Source: Coleofasciculus sp. B1-GNL1-01 | GTDB lineage: Bacteria > Cyanobacteriota > Cyanobacteriia > Cyanobacteriales > Coleofasciculaceae | Length of the DNA: 64,000 nt | Direction: 5' to 3' (one strand) | NCBI GenBank assembly: GCA_040220235.1 | Contig: JAVJTO010000039.1 | Shown here: piece by piece, positions 1 through 46,133 of the stretch | Numbering within the stretch: position 1 is the first letter of the stretch | How the letters are laid out: each line of letters opens with the position of its first letter | Position numbers and translations under genes: made by a program | The notes under the pieces: generated by a model | The model's input: the letters and a program-made list of their open reading frames with translations, nothing else | Database searches by the model: none | What the model was told of the DNA's origin: nothing

Positions 1-355
1 CATTAATTTGGAGATAGCCGCCAGTTAGGTGGTGTTAGCTTGTGGACTGGTTGAGTGCCGACACCGCCAGGATGAAGCAGGAAGTAAGTTCCAGGGATGT
101 CCATTTGTGGGTAGCTTTGGGTAAGTCTTATGTAACGGATACGACATGAGGAGGTAAGCGAAAAGATGCGATCGCACAAAAACACGATGGAATGAAGATC
201 CGTCCTACTCCTATGCTATTTTCAGGATACATGATGATTTCAGCAAGACGGGCAGCACATCGCTCTCGGTATTCTCGATTACTCAGCCGACCAACAGTTC
301 CAATCGTTACAACAATTACGTAGAAACGTGCCATGGCACATCTGTTATCAGTCCA

Positions 356-877
356 ATGAAGCAAGTTACAGTTTATCTCAACCACGGAAAACACTGTACC
401 GGAAGCTCCGATAACGGCAGAACCACCACCGAGAACCATATCTTGTATCCCGGTGATATGTGTATCGTTGATCCCGCCCATTCAAACAAACACAAATACA
501 GAGGTAGAATCGGCAGACTGGATGGCACCCAACGAAAAGGAATTCCCCGAATTTGTTTCACGGACAAAAAAGGTGGTTATGGTTACATCAATCCCGTTGA
601 TCTCTCCCCTCTCCCCGCTAATCTACCCGCTATAACCAGCATTAAATCATCGTCCCAAAAACCCCATCCCACCTTTTCCGTAGACTTACCGCCAAAAGTT
701 CCCGGCGACAAAGATAGTCTGCAACGCGCCATCTGTCTCCTGGGAAATCGCACCAAATCGGAACTCAAACCCAAGCATCAAACCGAATTAAAAGAACTCA
801 TTGGCACGTATCCCAACGCCCAGAGAGCCGCCGACTGGAAGAAAGGATTAAAGCAAGTCGTTAAACAGTCAAGTTAA
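356..877 (+). CDS. Hypothetical protein, possibly with a KOW/SH3-like segment
   Basis: 173-aa ORF; LYPGDMCIV..KYRGRIGRL resembles a KOW-like motif; no family recognised. Confidence 0.45.
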   Translation: MKQVTVYLNHGKHCTGSSDNGRTTTENHILYPGDMCIVDPAHSNKHKYRGRIGRLDGTQRKGIPRICFTDKKGGYGYINPVDLSPLPANLPAITSIKSSSQKPHPTFSVDLPPKVPGDKDSLQRAICLLGNRTKSELKPKHQTELKELIGTYPNAQRAADWKKGLKQVVKQSS

Positions 878-988
878 ATCAAGATAAGTAGGTTGGCATT
901 AATTAATAGTAGTCATTGAGGTAAGGCAGAAGGTAACGAGTAAGGTAGCAAGAAGGAAATGATAACAGTTTAGGCGGACAGACTAACC

Positions 989-1030
989 CTCTCTGCGTTT
1001 CTCTGCGTTTTCCTCCGCGTTCTCTGCGTT
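989..1030. repeat. Short tandem repeat (CTCTGCGTTT-like, about 4 copies)
   Basis: ctctgcgttt ctctgcgttt tcctccgcgt tctctgcgtt. Confidence 0.7.
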
Positions 1031-1064
1031 AAAAAATCCAACTAGCCATAGTATAAAATAACTC

Positions 1065-1958
1065 ATGTCTCATCCCCAAAAAATTCGCCAACTCCTCCAA
1101 CAACCCGAAACTCTCATCCTTCCCGGCGTATACGATTGCATCAGCGCCAAACTTGCCGAAAAAATTGGCTTTGAAGCCATCTTTACCAGTGGCTTTGGCA
1201 TTTCCGGTTCCACCCTCGGTAAACCTGATTACGGTTTTCTCACCGCTACCGAAATGCTCAATAGCGCCGGACAAATTGCAGAATCTGTTACCATTCCCCT
1301 TATCGCTGATATTGATACCGGGTACGGAAATCCCCTCAATGTTATCCGTACCGTCACCGATATCGTTAAACTTGATATTGCCGGAATTATCCTGGAAGAC
1401 CAAGAATTGCCCAAGAAATGTGGTCATTTTGCCGGAAAACGGGTGATCCCCGCCGCAGATCATATCCAGAAAATCCGCGCCGCCGTTCAAGCCCGTGGTA
1501 AAAGTGACTTAGTGATTATTGCCCGTACTGACGCCCGTGCGCCTTTGGGACTCGATGAAGCGATTCATCGCGGACGTGCCTATTATGAAGCTGGGGCAGA
1601 TATTATCTTTATAGAAGCCCCTCAGTCTCTTGAAGATTTACAGGCGATCGCCTCAGCCCTTCCTAATGTGCCTCTGTTTGCCAATATGATAGAAGGGGGC
1701 AAAACTCCGGTGCTGTCGGGTCAACAATTGCAAGAGTTAGGCTTCAAAATTGTCGTCTATCCCCTCTCTGGCTTATTTGCTGCGACTAAAGCCATGATGG
1801 ACTGTTTGAGTCATTTACGCCAACAGGGAACTACCGCAGGCTTTTCCAATCTCGTCTCCTTCCCAGAATTTGAGCAGCTTATTGACGTACCGCACTATCG
1901 CCAACTCGAACAGCAGTTCACTGTATCAGAAGCATCACCACCGGGGGAAATGGGATGA
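1065..1958 (+). CDS. Isocitrate lyase/PEP mutase family enzyme (2-methylisocitrate lyase-like)
   Basis: Motifs DIDTGYG, LEDQ..PKKCGH, IIARTDA, FIEAP, ANMIEGGKTP. Confidence 0.92.
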   Translation: MSHPQKIRQLLQQPETLILPGVYDCISAKLAEKIGFEAIFTSGFGISGSTLGKPDYGFLTATEMLNSAGQIAESVTIPLIADIDTGYGNPLNVIRTVTDIVKLDIAGIILEDQELPKKCGHFAGKRVIPAADHIQKIRAAVQARGKSDLVIIARTDARAPLGLDEAIHRGRAYYEAGADIIFIEAPQSLEDLQAIASALPNVPLFANMIEGGKTPVLSGQQLQELGFKIVVYPLSGLFAATKAMMDCLSHLRQQGTTAGFSNLVSFPEFEQLIDVPHYRQLEQQFTVSEASPPGEMG

Positions 1959-2373
1959 GATGATGGGGCGATGAAGTGATGGGGGAGTTAATTCAACATT
2001 ATTGCACTTGGTCAGGCGAGAGGCAATACTGCTCGGATAAGCTTTCTCCCCAGCTCCCCCAGCTTCCAGACGTGCCATGGCACGTCTCTACATTGCTTCC
2101 CCAGCTTCCCCAACTTCCCTGATTGATCCGGTTGACCAATAGAAGAATGTCAGTATACATGGGTAGAAAGGGACGCCATCTTCAAAACTTAACCGGAATG
2201 CCCTGAAATCCCCTGTAGACGGCAACTACACCTAACCATTACGGTTCTGCCCACTGATAGAGTCCATCATACAGAGGTAAAGTGTTAGTAGAAAGTACAT
2301 AAAAATTTACAAATAAGGGTAAATCGTTTACCCCTTCAGCCAATCATATACCGCTCGGCAAAGGAAACCAACC

Positions 2374-4857
2374 ATGTTTGAACATTTTACAGACAGAGCT
2401 ATCAAATCCATTATGCTCGCCCAAGAGGAAGCCCGTCGCCTGGGACATAACCTCGTGGGAACGGAGCAAATTCTCCTCGGATTGCTGCGAGAAGGAACCA
2501 GTGTGGCGGCGATTGTCCTCAAGGAGATGGATGTCACCCTGGAATCGACTCGGAAGGTGGTCGAAAAAATCATTGGTCGCGGGTCAGGCTTCGTTCCGGC
2601 TGAAATTCCCTTCACACCTAAAGCCAAACGCCTGTTTGAGCAGTCGTTTAAAGAAGCGCGACAACTGGGACACAATTATATCGGTCCAGAACATTTGTTA
2701 CTCGCCATTCTGCAAGACACCGACAGCGTCGCGGGTAAAGTGTTGCAAAGTTTAGGCGTCAACCCCTCCACCGCCCGCACCAAACTCATTCAAGCCATTG
2801 GCGAAGTCGCCGCCGCTGCTACCGCTAGAGGACCCGGTACTTCAATGATGGGTCGCACATCAAAGTCCGCCACCTTGGAAGAGTTTGGCAGGAATCTCAC
2901 CCAGTTAGCCTCAGAAGGTAAGTTAGACCCGGTGGTGGGTCGTGTCAAGGAAATCGAACGGATTATTCAAATATTAGGACGCCGAACCAAGAATAATCCC
3001 GTATTATTGGGAGAACCAGGTGTTGGTAAAACCGCGATCGCCGAAGGATTGGCGCAACGGATTTCCGATAATCATGTACCAGAACTATTGGAAAATAAGC
3101 AGGTGATCAGCCTGGACATCGGATCACTGATTTCCGGTACTCGTTTCCGGGGTGACTTCGAGGAACGCATTAAGCAGATTATGCAGGAAGTGCGTGAAGC
3201 CGGAAATATTATCCTGGTGATTGACGAAATCCATACCTTAGTTGGTGCTGGGGCGCTAGAAGGCGGATTAGATGCAGCAAATATCCTCAAACCCGCTTTA
3301 GCACGAGGCGAACTCCAGTGTGTCGGCGCGACAACATTGGATGAATATCGTAAGCATATTGAGCGCGACGCCGCCCTAGAACGCCGTTTCCAACCAATTA
3401 TGGTGGGTGAACCCTCAGTTGAGGAAACCATTGAAATTTTGCAGGGGTTGCGAGATGCTTATGAGCAGCATCACCGAGTCGAAATCTCTGATCATGCGTT
3501 AGATGCGGCGGCGAAACTGTCAGATCGTTATATTAGCGATCGCTTCTTACCGGACAAAGCCATTGACTTGATTGATGAAGCTGGAAGCCGTGTGCATCTG
3601 ATTCATTGTCAGCCGTCTCCAGCCACGCGAGACATCAAGCGTCAAATGCGTCAGGTGACAAAAGAAAAAGAAGACGCCGTTCGTCTCCAGGACTTTGAAA
3701 AAGCCGCCCAATTGCGCGATCGCGAACAGGAACTGGAAACTCAGCTTCAGGCAATTCTGCAAGAGGAAACGGATGCAGATACCCCCGTACAGACACCTCT
3801 GGTGAATGAGGAAGATATCGCCCACATTGTCTCCTCCTGGACAGGTGTACCCGTCAACAAGTTGACCCAATCCGAATCAGCGATGCTGCTGCACATGGAA
3901 GATACATTGCACCAACGCTTAATTGGTCAAGAAGAAGCGGTTACCGCTGTCTCCAAAGCGATTCGGCGGGCGCGGGTGGGGTTAAAAGACCCGAATCGAC
4001 CCATCGCAAGCTTTATCTTCTCTGGACCGACGGGAGTGGGTAAGACGGAATTGGCGAAAGCGTTGGCGGCTTACTTCTTCGGGTCAGAAGAGGCGATGAT
4101 TCGCTTGGATATGTCTGAGTACATGGACCCGCACACCGTCTCTAAGCTAATCGGTTCGCCTCCCGGATTTGTCGGCTATGACGAAGGTGGTCAACTTACA
4201 GAAGCTGTCCGGCGTCAACCCTACACGGTACTCCTGTTTGACGAAATCGAGAAAGCACACCCCGATGTCTTCAATAGCCTCTTACAACTGTTGGATGATG
4301 GTCGGTTGACAGATGCCAAAGGTCGTACCGTAGACTTCAAGAACACCCTGATTATCATGACCTCGAACATCGGTTCACGGGTGATTGAAAAAGGTGGCGG
4401 TGGTTTCGGATTTGAAGACTCAGACAACCTAGCTGAATCTCAATACAACCGGATTCGCAGCCGCGTGAATGATGAACTCAAGGATTATTTCCGTCCAGAG
4501 TTCCTCAATCGCCTTGACGATATTATCGTCTTCCGTCAGTTAAACCGCGATGAGATTAAGCAAATTGCTGATCTCCTGTTGGTGGAAGTTTCCACTCGCT
4601 TAGTTGAACAGGGAATTACCCTAGAAGTGACCGAACGGTTCAAAGAGCGTTTAGTTGAAGAAGGGTATGATCCCAGTTATGGGGCGCGACCTTTACGTCG
4701 GACGATTATGCGGCTATTAGAAGATAGCTTAGCCGAAGCCATGTTAGCGAGTGAGATCCTTGAAGGAGAAACCGCTGTGGTTGATGTTGATGAGAATGGT
4801 GAGGTGAAGGTTTTACCAGGTGAATCACCAGCGCGGTTGCTACAACCTGTAGGTTAA
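2374..4857 (+). CDS. clpC: ATP-dependent Clp protease ATP-binding subunit ClpC (divergent paralog)
   Basis: Clp N repeats, Walker A GEPGVGKT and [11 protein letters not shown] coil, GARPLRR. Confidence 0.95.
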
Positions 4858-26877: not shown

Positions 26878-29800
26878 ATGACAACCATTACCATTCGCGA
26901 ACATCAGTCAACCGATAGCGGATTTACGGCGACTCTTAGTTTTGATCGGCGGGTCAATTATCCGATCGCAATTACTGACCCCTTCACCCCCAAACAAGAA
27001 CAGAATCTGGAATGGTATTTTGAGGAATGGTTGGTGTTTCCCCAATTGGGAACAGTGAAGGCGGAACAGGCGAAGGAATCGGTTAAGGGTTACGGGGAAC
27101 AATTATTTGAGCAGGTATTTAGAACTAATATTGATGCCTATAGCGAGTATCGGCAAATCCGGGGGAATTTAAGTCAGCTACAAATAGAGATTTAAAGCCA
27201 GACGCCAGAGTTTCAAGCGCTGCATTGGGAAGCCCTGCGTGATCCGGATTTACCGCGTCCCCTGGCGGTGGATTGTCTGATGCTAAGGAAACATACGAAA
27301 CCCGTTCCGATTGGGGCAAGTATGCCACCGTTTCCGGTGATTAATTTACTCTTGGTAACAGCACGACCGGATGAAGAAAGGGATGTTGGTTATCGTACCA
27401 TTTCCCGCCCGTTAATTGAAGCGATTGAGACGGCAAAGTTACGGGTGAATGTGGAGTTATTGCGTCCGGCTACATACAAAGCGTTATCGAAACAGTTGGA
27501 GGAGAAAGGGGCGGGATATTATCATATTATTCATTTTGACGCCCATGGCTCGTTGATGAGTTATGAGCAATTGCAGAAGGGGATAAAACGGAAGCGGTAT
27601 CTGTTTCAAGCGCGGTGGGGGCGAGAGGATATTGATCCATATCAAGGGGTGAAGGCGTTTCTGTTTTTGGAGGGGGAAACTCAGGGAAAAGCTGATCCGG
27701 TGGAGGCGTCGGAGTTGGCGGATTTGTTGACCGGAAAGGGGATTCCGGTTTGTATTTTAAATGCTTGTCAATCGGGGAAGGAAAGACCTAACCCCCCAAC
27801 CTCTTTTCCGGCTGATGAATCGGGGGGAGCTGGGGAAGCTGGGGGAGCTGGGGGAGCTGGGGGAGCAGAGGGAGGGGTTCTTGATGATGCCCGTGAAACC
27901 AGTTTAGGCAGTCGCCTGATGGCGGCGGGGATGCAGATGGTGGTGGCGATGGGCTATTCGGTAACCGTAACGGCGGCTTCGTTGTTAATGGAAACGGTTT
28001 ATAAACAGGTATTTGCCGAAAAGACGATTCGGGAAGCTTTACGACTGGGACGCCGCGAACTCTACAACGATAAAAAACGTAAAGCCTATTATAACCAAAC
28101 CATCGACTTAGAAGACTGGCTTTTACCTGTGGTTTATACCAATCAACCCGTTAATCTGAATTTACGGGAGTTTACGCCTCAGGAAGAAGAAGATTATTAT
28201 GCCGCGCGTCAGCAGCAGTATCAGTTTACTCCACCCACTTATGGGTTTGTGGGGCGGGATTTGGAGATTCTCAAGATAGAAAAGGCGTTGCTGCGCCATC
28301 CTATTTTACTGTTGCGGGGGATGGGGGGAACCGGGAAAACTACCCTCCTACTTTATTTACAGGAATGGTGGCAAACGACTCATTTTGCTGAAGCCATCTT
28401 TTATTTTGGTTATGACATAAAAGCCTGGACATTAAAGCAAATCCTGCGGGAGATTGGTAAGCAGGTTTATGATAAGTTCGAGTTCAGCCGATTTCAGGCG
28501 ATGAATCAGGCGGCGCAGGTGCAGAAATTGGCAGATAAACTGAAAACGGAGACTCATATCCTGATTTTGGATAACTTGGAATCGGTGACGGGGAAACGGT
28601 TGGCGATTAAACATACGTTATCCAAGACTAAGCGACAGGAAATCCAGGACTTTCTCAGCCGATTAGTGGGTGGGAAAACGCGGGTGGTGTTGGGTTCCCG
28701 CAGTGGCGAGGAGTGGTTACAAGGGACATTTGGCGATAATGTGTATCCGTTACAGGGATTAGATGTTCAGGCGCGTTCAGAGTTGGCGCAAAAGATATTA
28801 GAACGGTACTTACCCGCAAAGGCGATTCCCAAGATACGGGAAGATGCAGCGTTTATCCGATTAATGAAACTCTTGGCGGGGTATCCTTTGGCGATGGAGG
28901 TAGTGTTGGCGAATCTGAAGCAGCAATCCCCGGCGGAGATTGTTGAGGGGTTGGAGAGGGCGGATATTGGGTTGGATTCGGGGAGTGAGGATAAGACGGA
29001 GAGTATTGTTCAATGTGTGGACTATTCCCATCGGAATTTGTCGGCGGCGGCGCAGCAGTTGTTGTTGTGTTTAGCGCCGTTTAGTGGGTTTATTTGGCGG
29101 GATGGGATGGGGAATTATGTGAATGAGTTGCAGCAGTTAGCCCCGTTTCAGGATTATCCGTTTGAGGAGTTTGAGGCGGCGATTCAAGAGGCGATTAATT
29201 GGGGGTTGTTGTCGAACCTCTCCCCCAGCTCCTCTCCTACAAGGAGAGGGGAGCAAGATGACCTCTCCCCCAGCTCCTCTCCTACAAGGAGAGGGGAGCA
29301 AGATTCTCCACTGTTGCGGATTCAGCCGGTTTTTCCTTATTTCTTGCGGATGAAGCTGAATGAAGAGGATGCAGACAAGCGGGAAGCGTTGCGGGAGGGG
29401 TTTAAACGTCACTATTTGACGTTGGCGGTTGGTTATCAGCAGTGGCTGGAATCGAAGCAGGCGCAAAAACGGCAATTGGGGATTGTCTTCTGTCAACTGG
29501 AGTATGAAAATCTCTATAATGCCCTGCAACTCTGTTTAGAGAAGCAGGAAACGGTGGATATCTTTTTCTGTTTGTTTCAATACTTCTTGCAGATTAATGA
29601 TATCCAGAGTAATCTCAAACTCTCAGAATTTGTTTGTCAGAAACAAGCAGCATATCCGGCATCATTACACACCGGTAGAATTAGGTGGGAAATTGTCATG
29701 GCACAGGCTAAGTTAGCCTATTGTTACCTAGAAACCCAGAATTATGCTCAAGCCAAAGCCGTTTATCAGTATGTGCTGGAACTTTACCAACAGCTTGCCG

Positions 29801-31431
29801 GAGTAGAGGAGAGACAGAAACAGCTTTACATAGCTAGCACCTATCACCAGTTAGGAATAGTTGCCCAAAAGTTACGGGAGTATGAGCAGGCAAGGCAATA
29901 CTATCACCAGGCTCTCGATATTTTTATTGAATTTGGCGATCGCTACAATCAAGCCAAAACCTATCAGGAGTTAGGAAATGTTGCCCAAGCGTTAGGGAAG
30001 TATGAGCAGGCAAAGCGATACTATCAGCAGGCTCTGGATATTTACATTGAATTTAGCGATCGCTTCTCTCAAGCTGGCATCTATCACAATTTAGGAAGGG
30101 TTGCCCAAGAGTTTGGGGAGTATGAGCAGGCAAAGCTATACTATCAGCAGGCTCTGGATATTTGTATTGAATTTAGCGATCACTACAATCAAGCCAAACC
30201 CTATCACCAGTTAGGAAGGGTTGCCCAAGCGTTAGGGGAGTATGAGCTTGCATTGCACTACTATCAGCAGGCTCTGGATATTTACATTGAATTTAGCGAT
30301 CGCTACTCTCAAGCTCGCACCTATCACCAGTTAGGAATGGTTGCTCAAGAGTTACGGGAGTATGAGCTTGCATTGCACTACTATCAGCAGGCTCTGGATA
30401 TTAAGATGGAATTTGGCGATCGCTACTCTCAAGCTGTCACCTATCACAATTTAGGAAATGTTGCTGTAGAGTTACGGGAGTATGAGCTTGCATTGCACTA
30501 CTATCAGCAGGCTCTGGATATTTACATTGAATTTAGCGATCGCTACGAACAAGCTAGCACCTATCACCAGTTAGGAAGGGTTGCCCAAGAGTTACGGGAG
30601 TATGAGCAGGCAAAGCACTACTATCACCAGGCTCTGGATATTTACAATGAATTTAGCGATCGCTACTCTCAAGCTCGCACCTATCACAATTTAGGAATCG
30701 TTGCCCAAGAGTTACGGGAGTATGAGCAGGCAAAGCACTACTATCAGCAGGCTCTGGATATTTATATTGAATTTAGCGATCGCTTCTCTCAAGCTAGCAC
30801 CTATGAACAATTAGGAAATCTTGCAGTAGAGTTACGGGAGTAAGAGCAGGCAAAGCGAAACTATCAGCAGGCTCAGGATATTTACATTTAATTTAGCGAT
30901 CGCTTCTCTCTAGCTAGCACATATGGACAAATAGGAAATGTTGCTGTAGAGTTACGGGAGTATGAGCAGGCAAAGCGATACTATCAGCAGGCTCTGGATA
31001 TTTATATTGAATTTAGCGATCGCTACGAACAAGCTGACACCTATCACCAGTTAGGAAGGGTTGCCGAAGAGTTACGGGAGTATGAGCAGGCAAAGCGATA
31101 CTATCAGCAGGCTCTGGATATTTACATTGAATTTAGCGATCGCTTCTCTCTAGCTAGCACCTATGGACAATTAGGAAATGTTGCTGTAGAGTTACGGGAG
31201 TATGAGCAGGCAAAGCAATACTATCAGCAGGCTCTGGATATTTGGATTGAATTTGGCGATCGCTACTCTCAAGCTCGCACTTATGGACAATTAGGATTAC
31301 TGGCAGAAGCCCAGGAAAACTACGCCGAAGCGAGGGTGAATTTACAGACAGCCTTAGAGATATTCCTAGAGTATCAGGATGATTATTGGGCTGGTGTAGC
31401 GCGAGAAATCTTAGAACGCCTCCCAGATTGA
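26878..31431 (+). pseudogene. CHAT (caspase-like) protease + P-loop NTPase (NB-ARC/STAND-like) + TPR array, with three in-frame TAA stops (27193, 30841, 30889)
   Basis: One reading frame throughout; LHWEALRD, HFDAHG, LNACQSG, GMGGTGKTT, LILDNLE, GYPLA, 40-aa TPR repeats; terminal TGA at 31429-31431. Confidence 0.88.
29881..31320 (+). repeat. Twelve tandem 120-bp TPR-coding repeats
   Basis: Units start at 29881+120n (tatgagc...); very high DNA identity. Confidence 0.95.
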
Positions 31432-31712: not shown

Positions 31713-31856
31713 GCTTTTGATCCGCGTCGGGTTGCTGTACTACTTTTAGGGGGTAATAAAGGGGGAAATGATCGGTGGTATGACGAGAATATCCCCAAAG
31801 CCGATTTACTCTACGACGAACTTTTGCAGGAATTATCGGATGAGGGTTTGATATGA
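31713..31856 (+). pseudogene. 5'-truncated RelE/HigB (Gp49-like) toxin remnant
   Basis: Not in ORF track; reads AFDPRRVAVLLLGGNKGGNDRWYDENIPKADLLYDELL..EGLI*; ATGA overlap with the antitoxin. Confidence 0.75.
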
Positions 31857-32161
31857 AACGAAAGCCAATCAGTGAGTTAAGAAAACAAATGACACCTGAA
31901 CAACTAGCCGAGAGTCAAACTCGCGCTCAACTGGCGTCGTTGTCTCTGACTCTAGCCGAGTTACGTCAATCTCTCGGTGTTACCCAACAAGATATGACCG
32001 AGGAACTTGGTGTTATTCAGTCTACTTTGTCTAAACTGGAAAATCAAGAGGACATTCAAATTTCTACTCTATACCGCTATATTAAGGCTCTGGGTGGAAC
32101 GCTCCAACTGGTTGCCCATTTCCCGGATAGAGATGTGATTATTTCTCAGTTCGAGTCTTAG
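31853..32161 (+). CDS. XRE-family HTH antitoxin (HigA-like)
   Basis: LAELRQSLGVTQ..QSTLSKLE..ISTLYRYIKALGG. Confidence 0.88.
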   Translation: MKRKPISELRKQMTPEQLAESQTRAQLASLSLTLAELRQSLGVTQQDMTEELGVIQSTLSKLENQEDIQISTLYRYIKALGGTLQLVAHFPDRDVIISQFES

Positions 32162-32292
32162 GGACGGGAGGGGGATCTAAAAGGGGGACGGAAGGGGAAC
32201 CAGATCCAATAAAACCTACTAAAATAAAAGAATCCTTGCCCTCTTCAACAATAGCCAGGGCAACGGCAATCTTCACATCAGGAGACAGTACC

Positions 32293-32793
32293 ATGTCCTA
32301 TCACAATATTAGTGCCAGCCTCTCCGACACCGATATCGAAGAAATCAACACCGCCTTACAAACTATCGAACAGAAGCTACCCTTTCTGATTAACCTCAGC
32401 CCGAAAGAACGCCATGATCTGTATAAAATGGGCGATAAAAGTTTAGCCTTTGTCAACAATAGCCTCAACGCCGCCCAAACGAACTCTGGCATTCTCCCCG
32501 CCAATTTCAACACGGAGGAATTCGAGCGCGACTATCAACTGGCGTTGCGTCTTTCCGAGTTACTCATCCGACTCCAGCAACTGTCAGAAAAGGTGGATGA
32601 TACCCTGATAGCCGTCGGTAGTGAAGCCATGAAAAGCAGCTTAACCGTGTATGACTACGTGAAAATGGCATCGAAAACCACACCGGGCTTAAAAAGCGTG
32701 GCGGAGCAGTTAAAGGAACGCTTTAAAGGCGTGAAAACCAAAGGGAATGGGGGTTCATCAGGAGATGAATCAAGCTCTGAGAGTGATGAGTGA
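32293..32793 (+). CDS. Conserved-looking alpha-helical hypothetical protein (166 aa)
   Basis: RBS GGAGA before ATG 32293; LPFLINLSPKER..KMGDKSLAFV, GSEAM, YDYVK, PGLKSV; function not recognised. Confidence 0.85.
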   Translation: MSYHNISASLSDTDIEEINTALQTIEQKLPFLINLSPKERHDLYKMGDKSLAFVNNSLNAAQTNSGILPANFNTEEFERDYQLALRLSELLIRLQQLSEKVDDTLIAVGSEAMKSSLTVYDYVKMASKTTPGLKSVAEQLKERFKGVKTKGNGGSSGDESSSESDE

Positions 32794-33070
32794 CGCTCTG
32801 AGCGTGGTGATGGGACACTCCAAGCGTGGCGGGAGACGCTCCTAGCGTGGTGAGGGGACGCTCTAAGCGTGGCGGGAGACGCTCCTAGCGTGGTGAGGGG
32901 ACGCTCTAAGCGTGGTGGGAGACGCTCCTAGCGTGGTGAGGGGACGCTCTAAGCGTGGTGGGAGACGCTCCTAGCGTGGTGAGGGGACGCTCTAAGCGTG
33001 GTGAGGGGACGCTCTAAGCGTGGTGGGAGACGCTCTGAGCGTGGTGGGAGGACACTCTAAGCGTGGTGGT
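32792..33070. repeat. Array of 13 tandem 21/22-bp units, GACGCT-cta/cct/ctg-AGCGTGG...
   Basis: Unit starts 32792, 32814, 32835, 32857, 32878, 32900, 32921, 32943, 32964, 32986, 33008, 33029, 33051. Confidence 0.95.
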
Positions 33071-33337
33071 GGAGTCTCAAGGCGACAAACGTTACCCGAA
33101 CAATAGCGGTTAGGACACATAGTAGAGACGTTCCGCCGGAACGTCTAGAACAACAGGAAAGGAAAGTCCGAATAGATGTGTATACAAATAGAAAGGTGCG
33201 TTACGCTTCGCTCTCCCCACGATGGCGGACTGACACAGCTAAAATTGTGGAATAGATTTATCGTTAAACCGGGCGCACGTCTGTGCGCCCCTACAATTCT
33301 AATCCACCAAATAAGGTGTGCCACGCCACTACAACTA

Positions 33338-33448
33338 GGAAGGTGTACCAGATACAATAAAACCGACTAAAATACAAGAATCATTGCCCTCTTCAACAAT
33401 AGCCAGAGCAATGGCAATCTTCACATCAGAAAAAACAACAATGTCCTA
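33338..33448 (+). repeat. Second copy of the ~110-bp leader at 32190-32300, ending ATG TCC TA
   Basis: Shared ggaagg..accagat.caataaaacc.actaaaata.aagaatc.ttgccctcttcaacaatagccag.gcaa.ggcaatcttcacatcag..atgtccta. Confidence 0.9.
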
Positions 33449-33925
33449 GTCTATACCCCTGCGATACCGATCTAAAAATTGTTTCAGTAGAGTTGATGAT
33501 GCCCGAAAACTGGTTTGCTGTAAACGCTCAAGCGTATCGGGAAAGTCAATGATTTGACGGACTCCTGCTTGATACAAAACACCTAATAATCCCGTTACCG
33601 TTAATCCTCGTTGTGTCGCTATGCGTCGAGCATCTAAATCATCCAGTACAATTAAACTCGATCCTAAACGCTCTGCCAACAAAATTGCCTCTGTCTCACC
33701 AACATCTAAACGCTCTAACATCTGATCTGCTTCGCCAGATACAACATGAATATCAAGCCAGTCTGGTGCTTGAGCAATCCAGGTTTGCACAGAAGCACCT
33801 TCCGCGATAAGTTCATTCTGTACCGCCTGGGGAATACTGATTCGCCCAAAAAGTTGAGGCAGGACATCGATTTGGTCGATTAAAATCAAATAGCAAAGTG
33901 GAGACGTATCACAAACAATGGTCAT
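33446..33925 (-). CDS. DUF3368 PIN-domain (VapC-like) toxin
   Basis: IVCDTSPL, LDVGETEAI, LDDLDARRIA, TGLLGVL. Confidence 0.9.
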   Translation of the reverse strand: MTIVCDTSPLCYLILIDQIDVLPQLFGRISIPQAVQNELIAEGASVQTWIAQAPDWLDIHVVSGEADQMLERLDVGETEAILLAERLGSSLIVLDDLDARRIATQRGLTVTGLLGVLYQAGVRQIIDFPDTLERLQQTSFRASSTLLKQFLDRYRRGID

Positions 33926-34190
33926 TCGTTTGGATAACCTTGGCTACGGCTTGAAGATCCTGTTCTAGGTCTGCCTCAGTATAGTGTAGATACGCTCCTT
34001 CTCGTTTCAGAAATTCATCAACGGCTAAACGAGAGGGTAAATTAAGCATTCGTCGGACTTCACCTGCGGTAAGGATACCCGATTTATAGGCTTGAGCCGC
34101 CATAATTTCTAATGAGCGCTGGGGCAAATTGTGCCATTTTGCTGTCAAACGATTACCAATATCATCCGGTATTTCAAGGCTAATTTGCAT
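33909..34190 (-). CDS. UPF0175 family antitoxin
   Basis: MQISLEIPDD..AYKSGILT..YTEADLEQD; overlaps the PIN gene; start set at ATG 34190. Confidence 0.85.
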   Translation of the reverse strand: MQISLEIPDDIGNRLTAKWHNLPQRSLEIMAAQAYKSGILTAGEVRRMLNLPSRLAVDEFLKREGAYLHYTEADLEQDLQAVAKVIQTNDHCL

Positions 34191-34349
34191 ATTAAATAAT
34201 GCTTGGCTGTCTGGTTTATTAGAATTTATATTAATTATAGTCGTTAAGGTAGGTTGGGTTTCGACTTCGCTCAACCCAACAGATGCTTCGGAAACAGGAT
34301 TGATGCACCAATACTAGATAATAGGGTAGGGGCACGATAATATCCATTG

Positions 34350-44240: not shown

Positions 44241-46133
44241 TTATTCGACGTTCGACAATCGACAACGTTGAACGGCTCCAGCGGACTCTCCCCGAATTCG
44301 ACGTATGGCGACTTCTAATTCACTTAAATCTTCTTGCAAACCACAATATTGAACTTGCAGAGTCTGCAAGGTTTCAGTTTCTACTGTCTTTCGCTCTTCT
44401 AACTGACGCAGTTCAGTTCGAGCCGTCGCGATTTGTTGTTCTGTGGTTTGGATTTCCGCTTGCAGTGTACTTAAACGCTGTTGTACGGTGCTGAATTCAC
44501 GGCGAGAGACTTCTAGGCGTTCTTGAGCGGTTTCGATTTCACCACGTACCTCAACCAGTTGTGCTTCTAAACTTTGCCGTTCACTCTGTAGCGACTCAAC
44601 TCTGGCTTCGGCGCTGCTAACCTCTTCTCGAACTTCAACTAACCGTTGTTGAGAGCGTCGCACAGAGGTTTGAGAGGCTTCTAGGCGTTCTTGAGAGGTC
44701 TCAATTTCTGCGCGGACTTCCACCAGTTGGGCTTCTAAGCTTTGCCGTTCATTTTGGCGTGATTCGAGTTCTACCTGAGCGGTACTAATTTCTTCTCGGA
44801 CTTCAACTAACTGTTGTTGAGAGCGGCGCACAGAGGTTTGAGAGGCTTCCAGGCGTTCTTGAGCGGTCTCAATTTCTGCGCGGACTTCCACCAGCCTCGC
44901 TTCTACGCTTTGGCGTTCACTGCGTAGGGATGTCAGTTGGGCTTGGGCGCTGGTAATCTCCTCTCGGACTTCAACTAATCGTTGTTGAGATTGTCGCACT
45001 GCTGTTTGCGAGGATTCAAGTTGAGCTTGGACGGTTTCAATTTCTTCTCGAATGGCGACTAACTGTTGGCGAGATTCCCGGATTTCGACTTGGGAGGATT
45101 CAAGTTGAGCTTGGGCGGTTTGAATTTCTTCCCGCAGAGCGACTAATCGCTGTTGCGATTGGCGTACAGAGGTTTGAGAGGACTCGAATTGGGCGGTTAC
45201 AGTTTGGCGTTCACTCCGCAATTCCTCTAATCGAGCTTCAGCGGTGCGAATCTCAGATTGCAACGCCACGAGTCGCTGTTGGGTGCTACGGACTTCAGTT
45301 GTCGATTCGCCGGAGGTGGTAAGAATCGAGAGTAAGGTGGTTACTTCTAAATCGGTTGCATCATAACTCGCCGCTCGTTCTAAAGACGCGATCGCTTGCT
45401 CATAACGTTCTAATTGATAGAGTGCTAATCCCCGTCGTTTCCAGGCGAGGGCGTTTCGCGGTTCAATTTCTAAGGCTTTATCACAACTCGCGACAGCATC
45501 TTGATACCGTTCCAGTTTATACAATGCAGCGGCGCGTTCTACCCACACTGACGCCATCTGCTCATTCGTTTGCAAAAGTTGGTCATAGATGGAGAGCGCC
45601 TGATTATACTCTCGCAACTCATAAGACAGCACTTGGGCAATTTGCTTGGGTATGACTGTAGTGATTAAGGTTTGTTCATACTCCGATTCGGCGTTTAAGG
45701 TTAAGGTTTGTTGCCAAGTATTAACCGCCGCCTGATAGCGTTGAAGTTCGTATAAGGCTTGTCCTTTCTGATACTGAGCTAAAAGATAATTAGGTTGAAG
45801 TCGAATTGCTTCATCGTAGGATGCGATCGCGCTTTCATACTGTCCCCAACTGCTGAATATCTCGCCGCGCCAATACCACGCCAAGAACGCCTCTGGCTGA
45901 ATTTGCACAATCCGATCTAGGATGGCGATCGCCTCACGATATTTACCCACACCCCGTAACTGGCTCACCTGTTGCCATAATTGATCCAGCAGTTGAGCTT
46001 GTGCGATCGGCATCGTAGTGGGAGTGCGATCGAACTCCATGGGTTCAATCGGGGTTTGCACCGTCGCACTGGCGATTCCACCAGTCATCAATGTCGCTAA
46101 GGCTACACTTATCTGAACTGGGATTTTTGACAT
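44241..46133 (-). CDS. Secreted TPR protein with a long repetitive coiled-coil C-terminus
   Basis: Signal peptide, TPRs (AIASYDEAIRLQP), heptad repeats SQQRLVEVREEI. Confidence 0.85.
   Translation of the reverse strand: MSKIPVQISVALATLMTGGIASATVQTPIEPMEFDRTPTTMPIAQAQLLDQLWQQVSQLRGVGKYREAIAILDRIVQIQPEAFLAWYWRGEIFSSWGQYESAIASYDEAIRLQPNYLLAQYQKGQALYELQRYQAAVNTWQQTLTLNAESEYEQTLITTVIPKQIAQVLSYELREYNQALSIYDQLLQTNEQMASVWVERAAALYKLERYQDAVASCDKALEIEPRNALAWKRRGLALYQLERYEQAIASLERAASYDATDLEVTTLLSILTTSGESTTEVRSTQQRLVALQSEIRTAEARLEELRSERQTVTAQFESSQTSVRQSQQRLVALREEIQTAQAQLESSQVEIRESRQQLVAIREEIETVQAQLESSQTAVRQSQQRLVEVREEITSAQAQLTSLRSERQSVEARLVEVRAEIETAQERLEASQTSVRRSQQQLVEVREEISTAQVELESRQNERQSLEAQLVEVRAEIETSQERLEASQTSVRRSQQRLVEVREEVSSAEARVESLQSERQSLEAQLVEVRGEIETAQERLEVSRREFSTVQQRLSTLQAEIQTTEQQIATARTELRQLEERKTVETETLQTLQVQYCGLQEDLSELEVAIRRIRGESAGAVQRCRLSNVE

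Follow-up and report, generated by a model that had tools for sequence, protein, structure and literature searches.

A family of small, all-helical bacterial proteins is tied to non-coding tandem arrays of fixed period; its gene predicts the presence of arrays in a genome, for the one array type tested, and carries a known type of promoter. The pairing of gene and array is a trait of the family. The literature that we searched, with most subscription papers and bioRxiv supplements outside its coverage, held no description of this protein-array pair. The family offers the constant-period tandem repeats that are called enigmatic in the available parts of PMC8161180 a candidate binding protein and an expression condition, SigJ-dependent hormogonium differentiation (PMC6495340). 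If this holds, the system represents either a novel mode of bacterial chromosome organisation or a self-maintaining repeat of a novel kind.

Gene and array in the window

The window is the whole 64,000-nucleotide stretch analysed, from contig C39 (JAVJTO010000039.1) of the 8.66-Mb genome of Coleofasciculus sp. B1-GNL1-01. Its sequence and translation give a gene with an ATG start (32293..32793, plus strand) for a 166-residue all-helical protein, followed by a non-coding array of 13 quasi-palindromic units (32793..33073). An earlier note, made from the letters of this DNA, had described such a protein and a 13-unit array overlapping its stop codon, and both points stand: the A that opens unit 1 is also the final base of the TGA codon. 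The degenerate unit that the note placed near 32771, within the last codons, is also present (32771..32792), and TRF extends the array to 32774 with period 43 and score 425. In the window clade this degenerate unit gives the protein an acidic tail; the last 22 residues of family members are usually basic.

Units start at 32793, 32815, 32836, 32858, 32879, 32901, 32922, 32944, 32965, 32987, 33009, 33030 and 33052, with lengths of 22, 21, 22, 21, 22, 21, 22, 21, 22, 22, 21 and 22 bp before the last unit. These measured lengths agree with the 21/22-bp alternation and 43-bp superperiod already reported, a period of about four DNA turns. A recount likewise returned ACGCT-nnn-AGCGT in 11 of the 13 units and ACACT in two, with variable loops (CTG, CCA, CCT and CTA). 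Stop codons occur in every one of the six frames across the array (10, 6, 6, 4, 3 and 3), confirming the non-coding assignment. CRISPR arrays consist of identical repeats with unique spacers; here linkers of 8-9 bases recur between units and no Rfam CRISPR family matches to E 1, and the earlier rejection of CRISPR holds. STRRs are heptamer units at many loci, unlike the window array, which has a primitive period of 43 and whose exact unit gives 11 matches in one cluster, that is, one array locus in the 8.66-Mb genome. The note's worry that the unit might recur at many unrelated loci is thus answered in two parts: the exact unit is unique, whereas arrays of the family as a whole are dispersed and mostly gene-less.

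Gene and array lie within a longer module, spanning 32206-33212 in orthologues, behind a CHAT-ATPase-TPR gene and among cassettes that come and go. Its 5' edge is a conserved leader (32206..32292, plus strand), where the orthologous alignments of loci L001, L002 and L163 start at 32206. The leader contains an inverted repeat formed by TTGCCCT (32236-32242) and AGGGCAA (32257-32263), with 21 bp from the start of one arm to that of the other, a J-box-like motif, GGCAATCTT (32265..32273, plus strand), with one mismatch to the consensus GGGaAtacT (PMC6495340), and a ribosome-binding-like AGGAG (32280-32284, plus strand). At the other end, a 3' flank common to orthologues (33074..33212) closes the module. 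It includes a palindrome (33122-33146) that we take to be REP-like. A second copy of the leader, identical at 97 of 111 aligned bases, follows on the plus strand (33338..33449) and ends ATG TCC TAG; judging from the alignment, it is the remnant of a second module that has lost its gene and array.

The CHAT-ATPase-TPR (NLR-like) gene (27268-31431, plus strand) holds 12 tandem 120-bp repeats that run to about 31284, and stops in frame at 30841 and 30889 truncate it short of that point. An HTH_3 antitoxin-like gene (31853-32161, plus strand) has no intact toxin ORF ahead of it; L001 and L163 lack this cassette. Downstream lies a minus-strand UPF0175 and PIN-like (DUF3368) pair (33446-34274); the segment 33213-33847 is missing in L001, L007 and L163. 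Coding-type tandem repeats of 84/168 bp occur further along on the minus strand (44504-45182).

The protein family

The closest named matches of the protein are from Coleofasciculus. Of 736 candidates close to it in length, a protein search identified 684 as relatives, and the family counts 2341 representatives at 50% identity, with Atlas clusters that include Cyanobacteriota and Bacteroidota. It is common in filamentous cyanobacteria and is also found in other bacteria. Its distribution is patchy: the gene occurs in 27 of 401 sampled cyanobacterial genomes, with at most eight matches each, fragments counted, and any chromosome role would therefore be accessory.

The structure model (pLDDT 93) is all-helical, with predicted helices at residues 12-28, 37-42, 48-63, 74-126 and 133-144, the longest of 53 residues. 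Basic residues are conserved at positions 28, 40, 45, 49, 79, 124, 128 and 143 and are joined by the basic tail; D80, D103, T104, E111 and Y120 are conserved as well, with D80, T104 and Y120 near-invariant. The net charge of the family is near zero (median -1).

No family in Pfam, NCBIfam, PADLOC or PHROG fits the protein (Pfam and PADLOC over 129 members), and the Atlas named clusters gave nothing usable for its identity. The note had also looked to a fold search of the model, which brought no clear structural match: Foldseek found none at E 0.001 against the PDB and viral models, and the best hit of a wide VIA search (Z 6.0) fell on generic helix pairs. These family and fold searches revealed no recognised DNA-binding domain. 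The best match among PDB sequences, dynein (E 0.0033), was read as a coiled-coil artefact, and the label 'methyl-accepting chemotaxis protein' carried by some homologues was rejected, being without Pfam support. In a search for longer forms with a single-protein query, none of 1164 candidates gave a score, which counts as weak evidence. The phage records and viral contigs searched contained no homologue, and 72,556 plasmids contained one, with no adjacent array by eye. Two variant genes were seen. In L004 / L015 (G008 C34) the gene is cut to residues 83-166 and the array is whole; in L027 (G010 C77) the N-terminal 55 residues of the family are fused in frame to an unrelated ORF.

Pairing of gene and array across homologues

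We collected 96 loci from the cyanobacterial phylum and retained 80 after removing duplicates, partial genes, those lacking a profile match and two with fewer than 600 bases downstream. An array was called when a repeat of period 21, 42 or 43 lay within 900 bases downstream, at scores of 40 and 20. By this measure 60 of the 80 genes are followed by an array at score 40 and 68 at score 20, against 25 and 41 of 4857 control ORFs from the window's own genome, a control from which 3-, 6-, 7- and 14-mer repeats were left out. The remaining 12 comprise four with an upstream array, one whose array is displaced by an inserted transposase-like ORF, and seven with none, meaning no downstream array at score 20 and no strong upstream one. 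In a paralogue, L100 (G000 C63:9735-12152), a 400-aa transposase-like ORF, presumably of IS605 type, lies between gene and array.

More distant homologues show the same arrangement. Among 80 metagenome loci, 57 are at less than 55% identity to the cyanobacterial set and 45 of these have enough sequence; the top downstream period is 21, 42 or 43 in 42 of the 45 (26 of 29 clusters), and the array reaches score 20 in 34 (20 of 29 clusters). Upstream, the same periods come first in 1 of 39. The pairing thus holds at about 35-55% protein identity although the unit sequences are unrelated, and in the loci scanned the array stands on one side of the gene only. The gene-plus-array module proposed in the note is accordingly a recurrent one, and its caution that homologues might lack downstream arrays applies to a minority.

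Period, length and axis of the arrays

All 61 strong arrays have a best period of 21 (17 arrays), 42 (40) or 43 (4), with a GC content of 30-75% and a median length of 249 bp (10-90% range 181-315). Units of the window clade average 21.5 bp. Twenty-one base pairs correspond to two turns of DNA. A profile built from 26 related arrays is quasi-palindromic, with a self-symmetry of 0.92 at one shift and 0.65-0.81 at the other 20, and three of the 26 fit it in reverse orientation to their gene. The dyad of the window unit coincides with the axis of this profile; the overall fit of the unit to the profile is weak, at 2.9-4.1 (null -1.9, sd 2.5, max 6.2). The 22/21 alternation is kept in five clade loci, apart from one departure in the window array.

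Arrays tend to be more alike where the proteins are more alike (rho 0.58; 1596 pairs, which are not independent). There are exceptions, such as L012 and L069, whose proteins are 43% identical and whose arrays are alike at 17 of 21 positions. Such cases suggest array swaps, and binding specificity may be loose, as the array does not always track the protein sequence. A role for G-quadruplexes was dropped, many family arrays being AT-rich.

The fixed period, variable sequence, non-coding state and presence of several types per genome are shared with the bacterial tandem repeats of constant size (20-21 nt) described by Subirana and Messeguer (PMC8161180), which have been reported in Cyanobacteria among others. 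Those authors noted the two helical turns and guessed at nucleoid binding or small RNAs. The available parts of PMC8161180 name no partner gene; here the arrays are linked to a specific protein family.

Promoter and expression

In 66 of 78 family genes the start codon is preceded, at a distance of 28-91 bases, by a GGGnAnnnT motif; the reverse strand has it in 5 of 78, and 335 of 3492 control ORFs carry it. The consensus GGGaAtacT, the J-box, is the promoter motif of SigJ in Nostoc punctiforme, where SigJ drives most type IV pilus genes in hormogonia (PMC6495340). We identify the motif of the family leaders as the J-box, and this promoter suggests a place for the family in the SigJ motility programme. 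In the window copy the single mismatch falls in the G trio; its sister allele L002 carries the full motif, GGGAATCTT, at this place. The host genome encodes two sigma factors resembling group 3, and pilB there is preceded by a J-box-like site. A sigma-70 scan found no promoter before the window gene on its strand, save one inside the upstream gene. Leaders of distant, non-cyanobacterial members show no J-box-like motif by eye. In one Nostoc clade (L030, L036 and relatives) a short inverted repeat with a 3-base loop stands just behind the J-box.

Among ten promoters from motif searches of Data Set S2 (PMC6495340), four match family leaders by eye. They are those of Npun_F0425 (79 of 80 bases against the L061 leader), Npun_R1178 (76 of 79, L085), Npun_F2482 (65 of 68, L040, followed by codons for MAYQN) and Npun_R5806 (77 of 79, L069). 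Npun_R5806 also shares its ABC-transporter neighbours with L069 and L074. On the strength of the promoter matches and these neighbours, the four genes are likely members of the family, and they provide named genes in a tractable strain. PMC6495340 lists them as hypothetical proteins in cluster 12 of the sigJ regulon; the available parts of that paper do not discuss the four genes and arrays. According to its Data Set S1, signal rises within 12 h from 44 to 1072 (Npun_F0425), 29 to 2098 (Npun_R1178), 9 to 134 (Npun_F2482) and 45 to 3604 (Npun_R5806), and stays at or below 5, 40, 2 and 27, respectively, without sigJ. This amounts to a 15-80-fold SigJ-dependent induction in hormogonia. Behind three of the genes the signal is SigJ-dependent too, at Npun_F0426 (12 to 346), Npun_F2483 (1 to 29) and a predicted RNA behind Npun_R5806 (22 to 937), and Npun_R1177 does not respond (PMC6495340); these are annotated or predicted features. 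Metatranscriptome contigs were rejected as proof of expression of the window copy: in four runs contigs reach 54-109 kb, so that DNA is among them.

Dispersed arrays and their dependence on the gene

The window's genome contains two family genes and, on C80, C149, C153 and C70, related arrays that lack a gene, at least four in all. It holds both 43-bp and 21-bp array types; the array at C80:6801-7073 is a related one of 43-bp period without a gene. Queried with a single array, five near-complete genomes yielded 27, 25, 39, 7 and 1 matches, many of them at full length. Of 33 distinct array loci examined in these genomes, five lie beside an intact gene, two beside a remnant and 26 beside neither within 1.5 kb. 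Gene-less arrays are intergenic, mostly beside housekeeping genes in any arrangement, and have no common flanks or terminal repeats by eye. Most are closest to the gene-linked arrays of their own lineage.

The tested array type occurs in 15 of the 401 genomes, and all 15 are among the 27 that carry the gene, in a test that scored at most two candidates per genome and in which the genomes are kin and the counts not independent. For family f7, arrays are present in 13 of the 18 genomes with the gene and in none of the 28 without it. Within the window's own genus, long arrays of the 43-bp type are found in the five genomes with a window-type gene, whole or truncated; the other four have array fragments of at most 65 bases or nothing. 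Two orthologous intergenic sites, compared over 36 loci, hold 10-16 units in four loci, 1-2 units at the junction in four, two units further off in one and none in 27; no locus holds 3-9. From this distribution it appears that arrays grow from, or collapse to, a single unit in place.

Proposed mechanism and alternatives

The reading that we place first, and hold with about as much confidence as doubt, is that, in the motile stage, the protein acts in trans and coats the double-stranded DNA of its arrays. Gene and array would be two parts of one system, with the protein forming a dimer or polymer along one face of the helix and occupying one quasi-palindromic site per two turns. The 53-residue helix could serve as a ruler, at about 80 Å (standard rise) against about 71 Å for 21 bp. 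The protein would act in trans on a few to tens of arrays per genome, and coating would keep arrays at full length or repay their upkeep. Expression at hormogonium differentiation would make it a stage-specific chromosome organiser or anchor. The arrays are better explained by a double-stranded site whose half-sites alternate about once per turn than by an RNA hairpin or by a peptide. Of the options in the note, DNA binding is the one that the evidence favours, given the kept period, dyad and length and the occurrence of either orientation.

Centromere-like sites with a small binding protein are known from parC/ParR of plasmid R1, RacA/ram of sporulating Bacillus subtilis and MatP/matS; RacA belongs to a developmental sigma programme and has many chromosomal sites. 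As in parC/ParR, phased repeats adjoin the gene of a small helical protein, whose binding is putative here. Unlike these systems, the family has no conserved partner NTPase, is nearly absent from plasmids (the single match noted above), and has long arrays of lineage-specific sequence as its sites; the family and fold searches turned up no RHH or HTH domain. The neighbour ORFs scanned, 198 cyanobacterial and 75 from distant loci, included no partition NTPase gene.

A wider claim, which we put forward tentatively and consider doubtful when taken as a whole, is that family and arrays represent a new class of protein-plus-DNA element found across phyla. It jointly supposes that an all-helical protein of new fold gauges two DNA turns and builds or maintains satellite arrays from seed units, that a developmental sigma factor deploys the protein to reorganise the chromosome, and that unrelated long-helix proteins (for example the product of C87:10765-11424) use the same principle.

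An unlikely alternative, and one compatible with coating, is that the system is a selfish or domesticated replicator in the manner of RAYT/REP, in which the protein would place single units at new sites or multiply them to about 12 copies, with the array beside the gene as master and any host benefit secondary. RAYTs are tyrosine transposases related to IS200/IS605, flanked on both sides by inverted REPs; the gene stands beside its cognate palindromic repeat, which has many dispersed intergenic copies, and the presence of the two is tied (PMC2817692). The family resembles this in the gene beside a cognate repeat, the dispersed copies, the dependence of the repeat on the gene and their co-drift. 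A replicator would account for the confinement of the tested array type to gene-positive genomes, the match of orphan arrays to the gene-linked array of their lineage and the gap at 3-9 units; near-invariant D80, T104 and Y120, with K45, K124 and R143, could be catalytic. Against it, the 129 members include no HUH or transposase family, no histidine is conserved and the model is all-helical without a transposase fold match. The array is one-sided and forms a head-to-tail lattice of fixed period and length, unlike RAYT/REP. Orphan arrays lack common flanks and terminal repeats by eye, and collapse by deletion would leave single units as well.

It is improbable that the coated array works as a local cis-regulator, either damping, as roadblock, attenuator or operator, the SigJ-driven read-through that would reach the following gene (in many cases one for an NLR-like ATPase) or exerting autoregulation on the family gene itself. 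The signal does fall from 3604 at Npun_R5806 to 937 at the predicted RNA behind it and 19 at Npun_R5805 (PMC6495340), but an ordinary terminator would give an equal drop. A NACHT/STAND gene lies directly behind the array in many cyanobacterial loci, and in four loci the array is upstream of the promoter; set against this, most orphan arrays sit beside housekeeping genes in any arrangement and the distant loci have no conserved partner gene, several having T9SS-type neighbours. Frequent cyanobacterial neighbours are NACHT/STAND, HEAT, WD40, toxin-antitoxin, Uma2 and XisH/I genes, in a scan of 198 of the 219 listed cyanobacterial neighbour ORFs that gives frequencies without a background rate. 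This mix of neighbours supports a variable region rather than a defence function, such as the note had suggested in placing the module in a defence island.

We give little credence to an RNA-level system, in which read-through of the array would yield a type III toxin-antitoxin-like antitoxin, a decoy or processed small RNAs. In type III systems (ToxIN, CptIN, TenpIN) the array precedes the gene on the strand that is transcribed, has a conserved RNA fold and is paired with a nuclease toxin. The family shares with them a small gene beside a tandem non-coding array of lineage-specific repeats; it differs in that the array is downstream in 68 of 80 loci, upstream in four and reversed in 3 of 26, and in that no ToxN-, CptN- or TenpN-type Pfam or PADLOC match occurs among 129 members. 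These placements speak against the type III reading that the note had entertained. In favour of an RNA, three of the four N. punctiforme genes have SigJ-dependent signal on the features immediately behind them (PMC6495340), and transcription past the gene is something that an RNA role would require; the units are self-complementary and the sense strand folds with z below -2 in 12 of 31 arrays. The antisense strand does so in 11 of 31, however, and the mean z is -1.7 on both strands. Nor do the mini-hairpins that the note took as the feature of the array prove to be conserved: over 61 units of five window-clade loci, 32 break the stem, by 29 A.C mismatches at the central pair and 3 C.C at another, with 0 compensatory changes, under a model of simple, pseudoknot-free stems. 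The RNA of the window array has z -1.8, an almost unpaired centroid and a poorly defined ensemble. Rfam gave no match at gathering level; two snoRNA matches were rejected as chance level. A double-stranded DNA site is thus likelier than an RNA antitoxin, given the kept period, dyad and length of about 250 bp, the occurrence of both orientations and the upstream position of some arrays.

The least probable reading, that there is no physical interaction and the array is a mutable dispersed repeat hitchhiking with the gene in cassettes that are shuffled, or the decayed remains of a heptad-coding tail or peptide, can appeal to the region being a cassette hot spot, to 21 bp being seven codons, to predicted homologues P0048 and P0116 that read into the array in frame and to sense ORFs covering at least 70% of the array in 42 of 57 loci, but it is opposed by antisense ORFs doing the same in 30 of 57, by peptides that differ in frame and composition, by equal information at codon positions 1-3 of the 26-array profile (0.76, 0.77 and 0.75), by a 22/21 alternation that is non-coding yet kept in five loci, and by a link that persists between diverged proteins with unrelated units.

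Other arrays of 21-bp period

The C87 locus, in the same genome as the window, has an arrangement of its own. A 21-bp array at G000 C87:10461-10717, open as a heptad ORF of 98 codons, lies directly upstream of the gene at C87:10765-11424 (L098), which encodes a 220-aa protein of helices and a beta-strand with 133 relatives, some from Phycisphaerales; array and gene stand between two caspase-like genes. Profile comparison of the window family with this protein gave no similarity (probability 0.3%). The helix plans are close, at 17, 54 and 7 residues in the C87 protein and 16, 53 and 12 in the window protein, and this modelled likeness, together with the 21-bp array, is compatible with the idea of a ruler, without being proof of it. 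A further, unlike tandem family of 21-bp period occupies at least 13 loci of near-identical units, at best 13 of 21 positions alike to the family studied here and several at contig ends, on G000 C35, C40, C44, C54, C55, C77, C87, C88, C118, C122, C145, C147 and C157.
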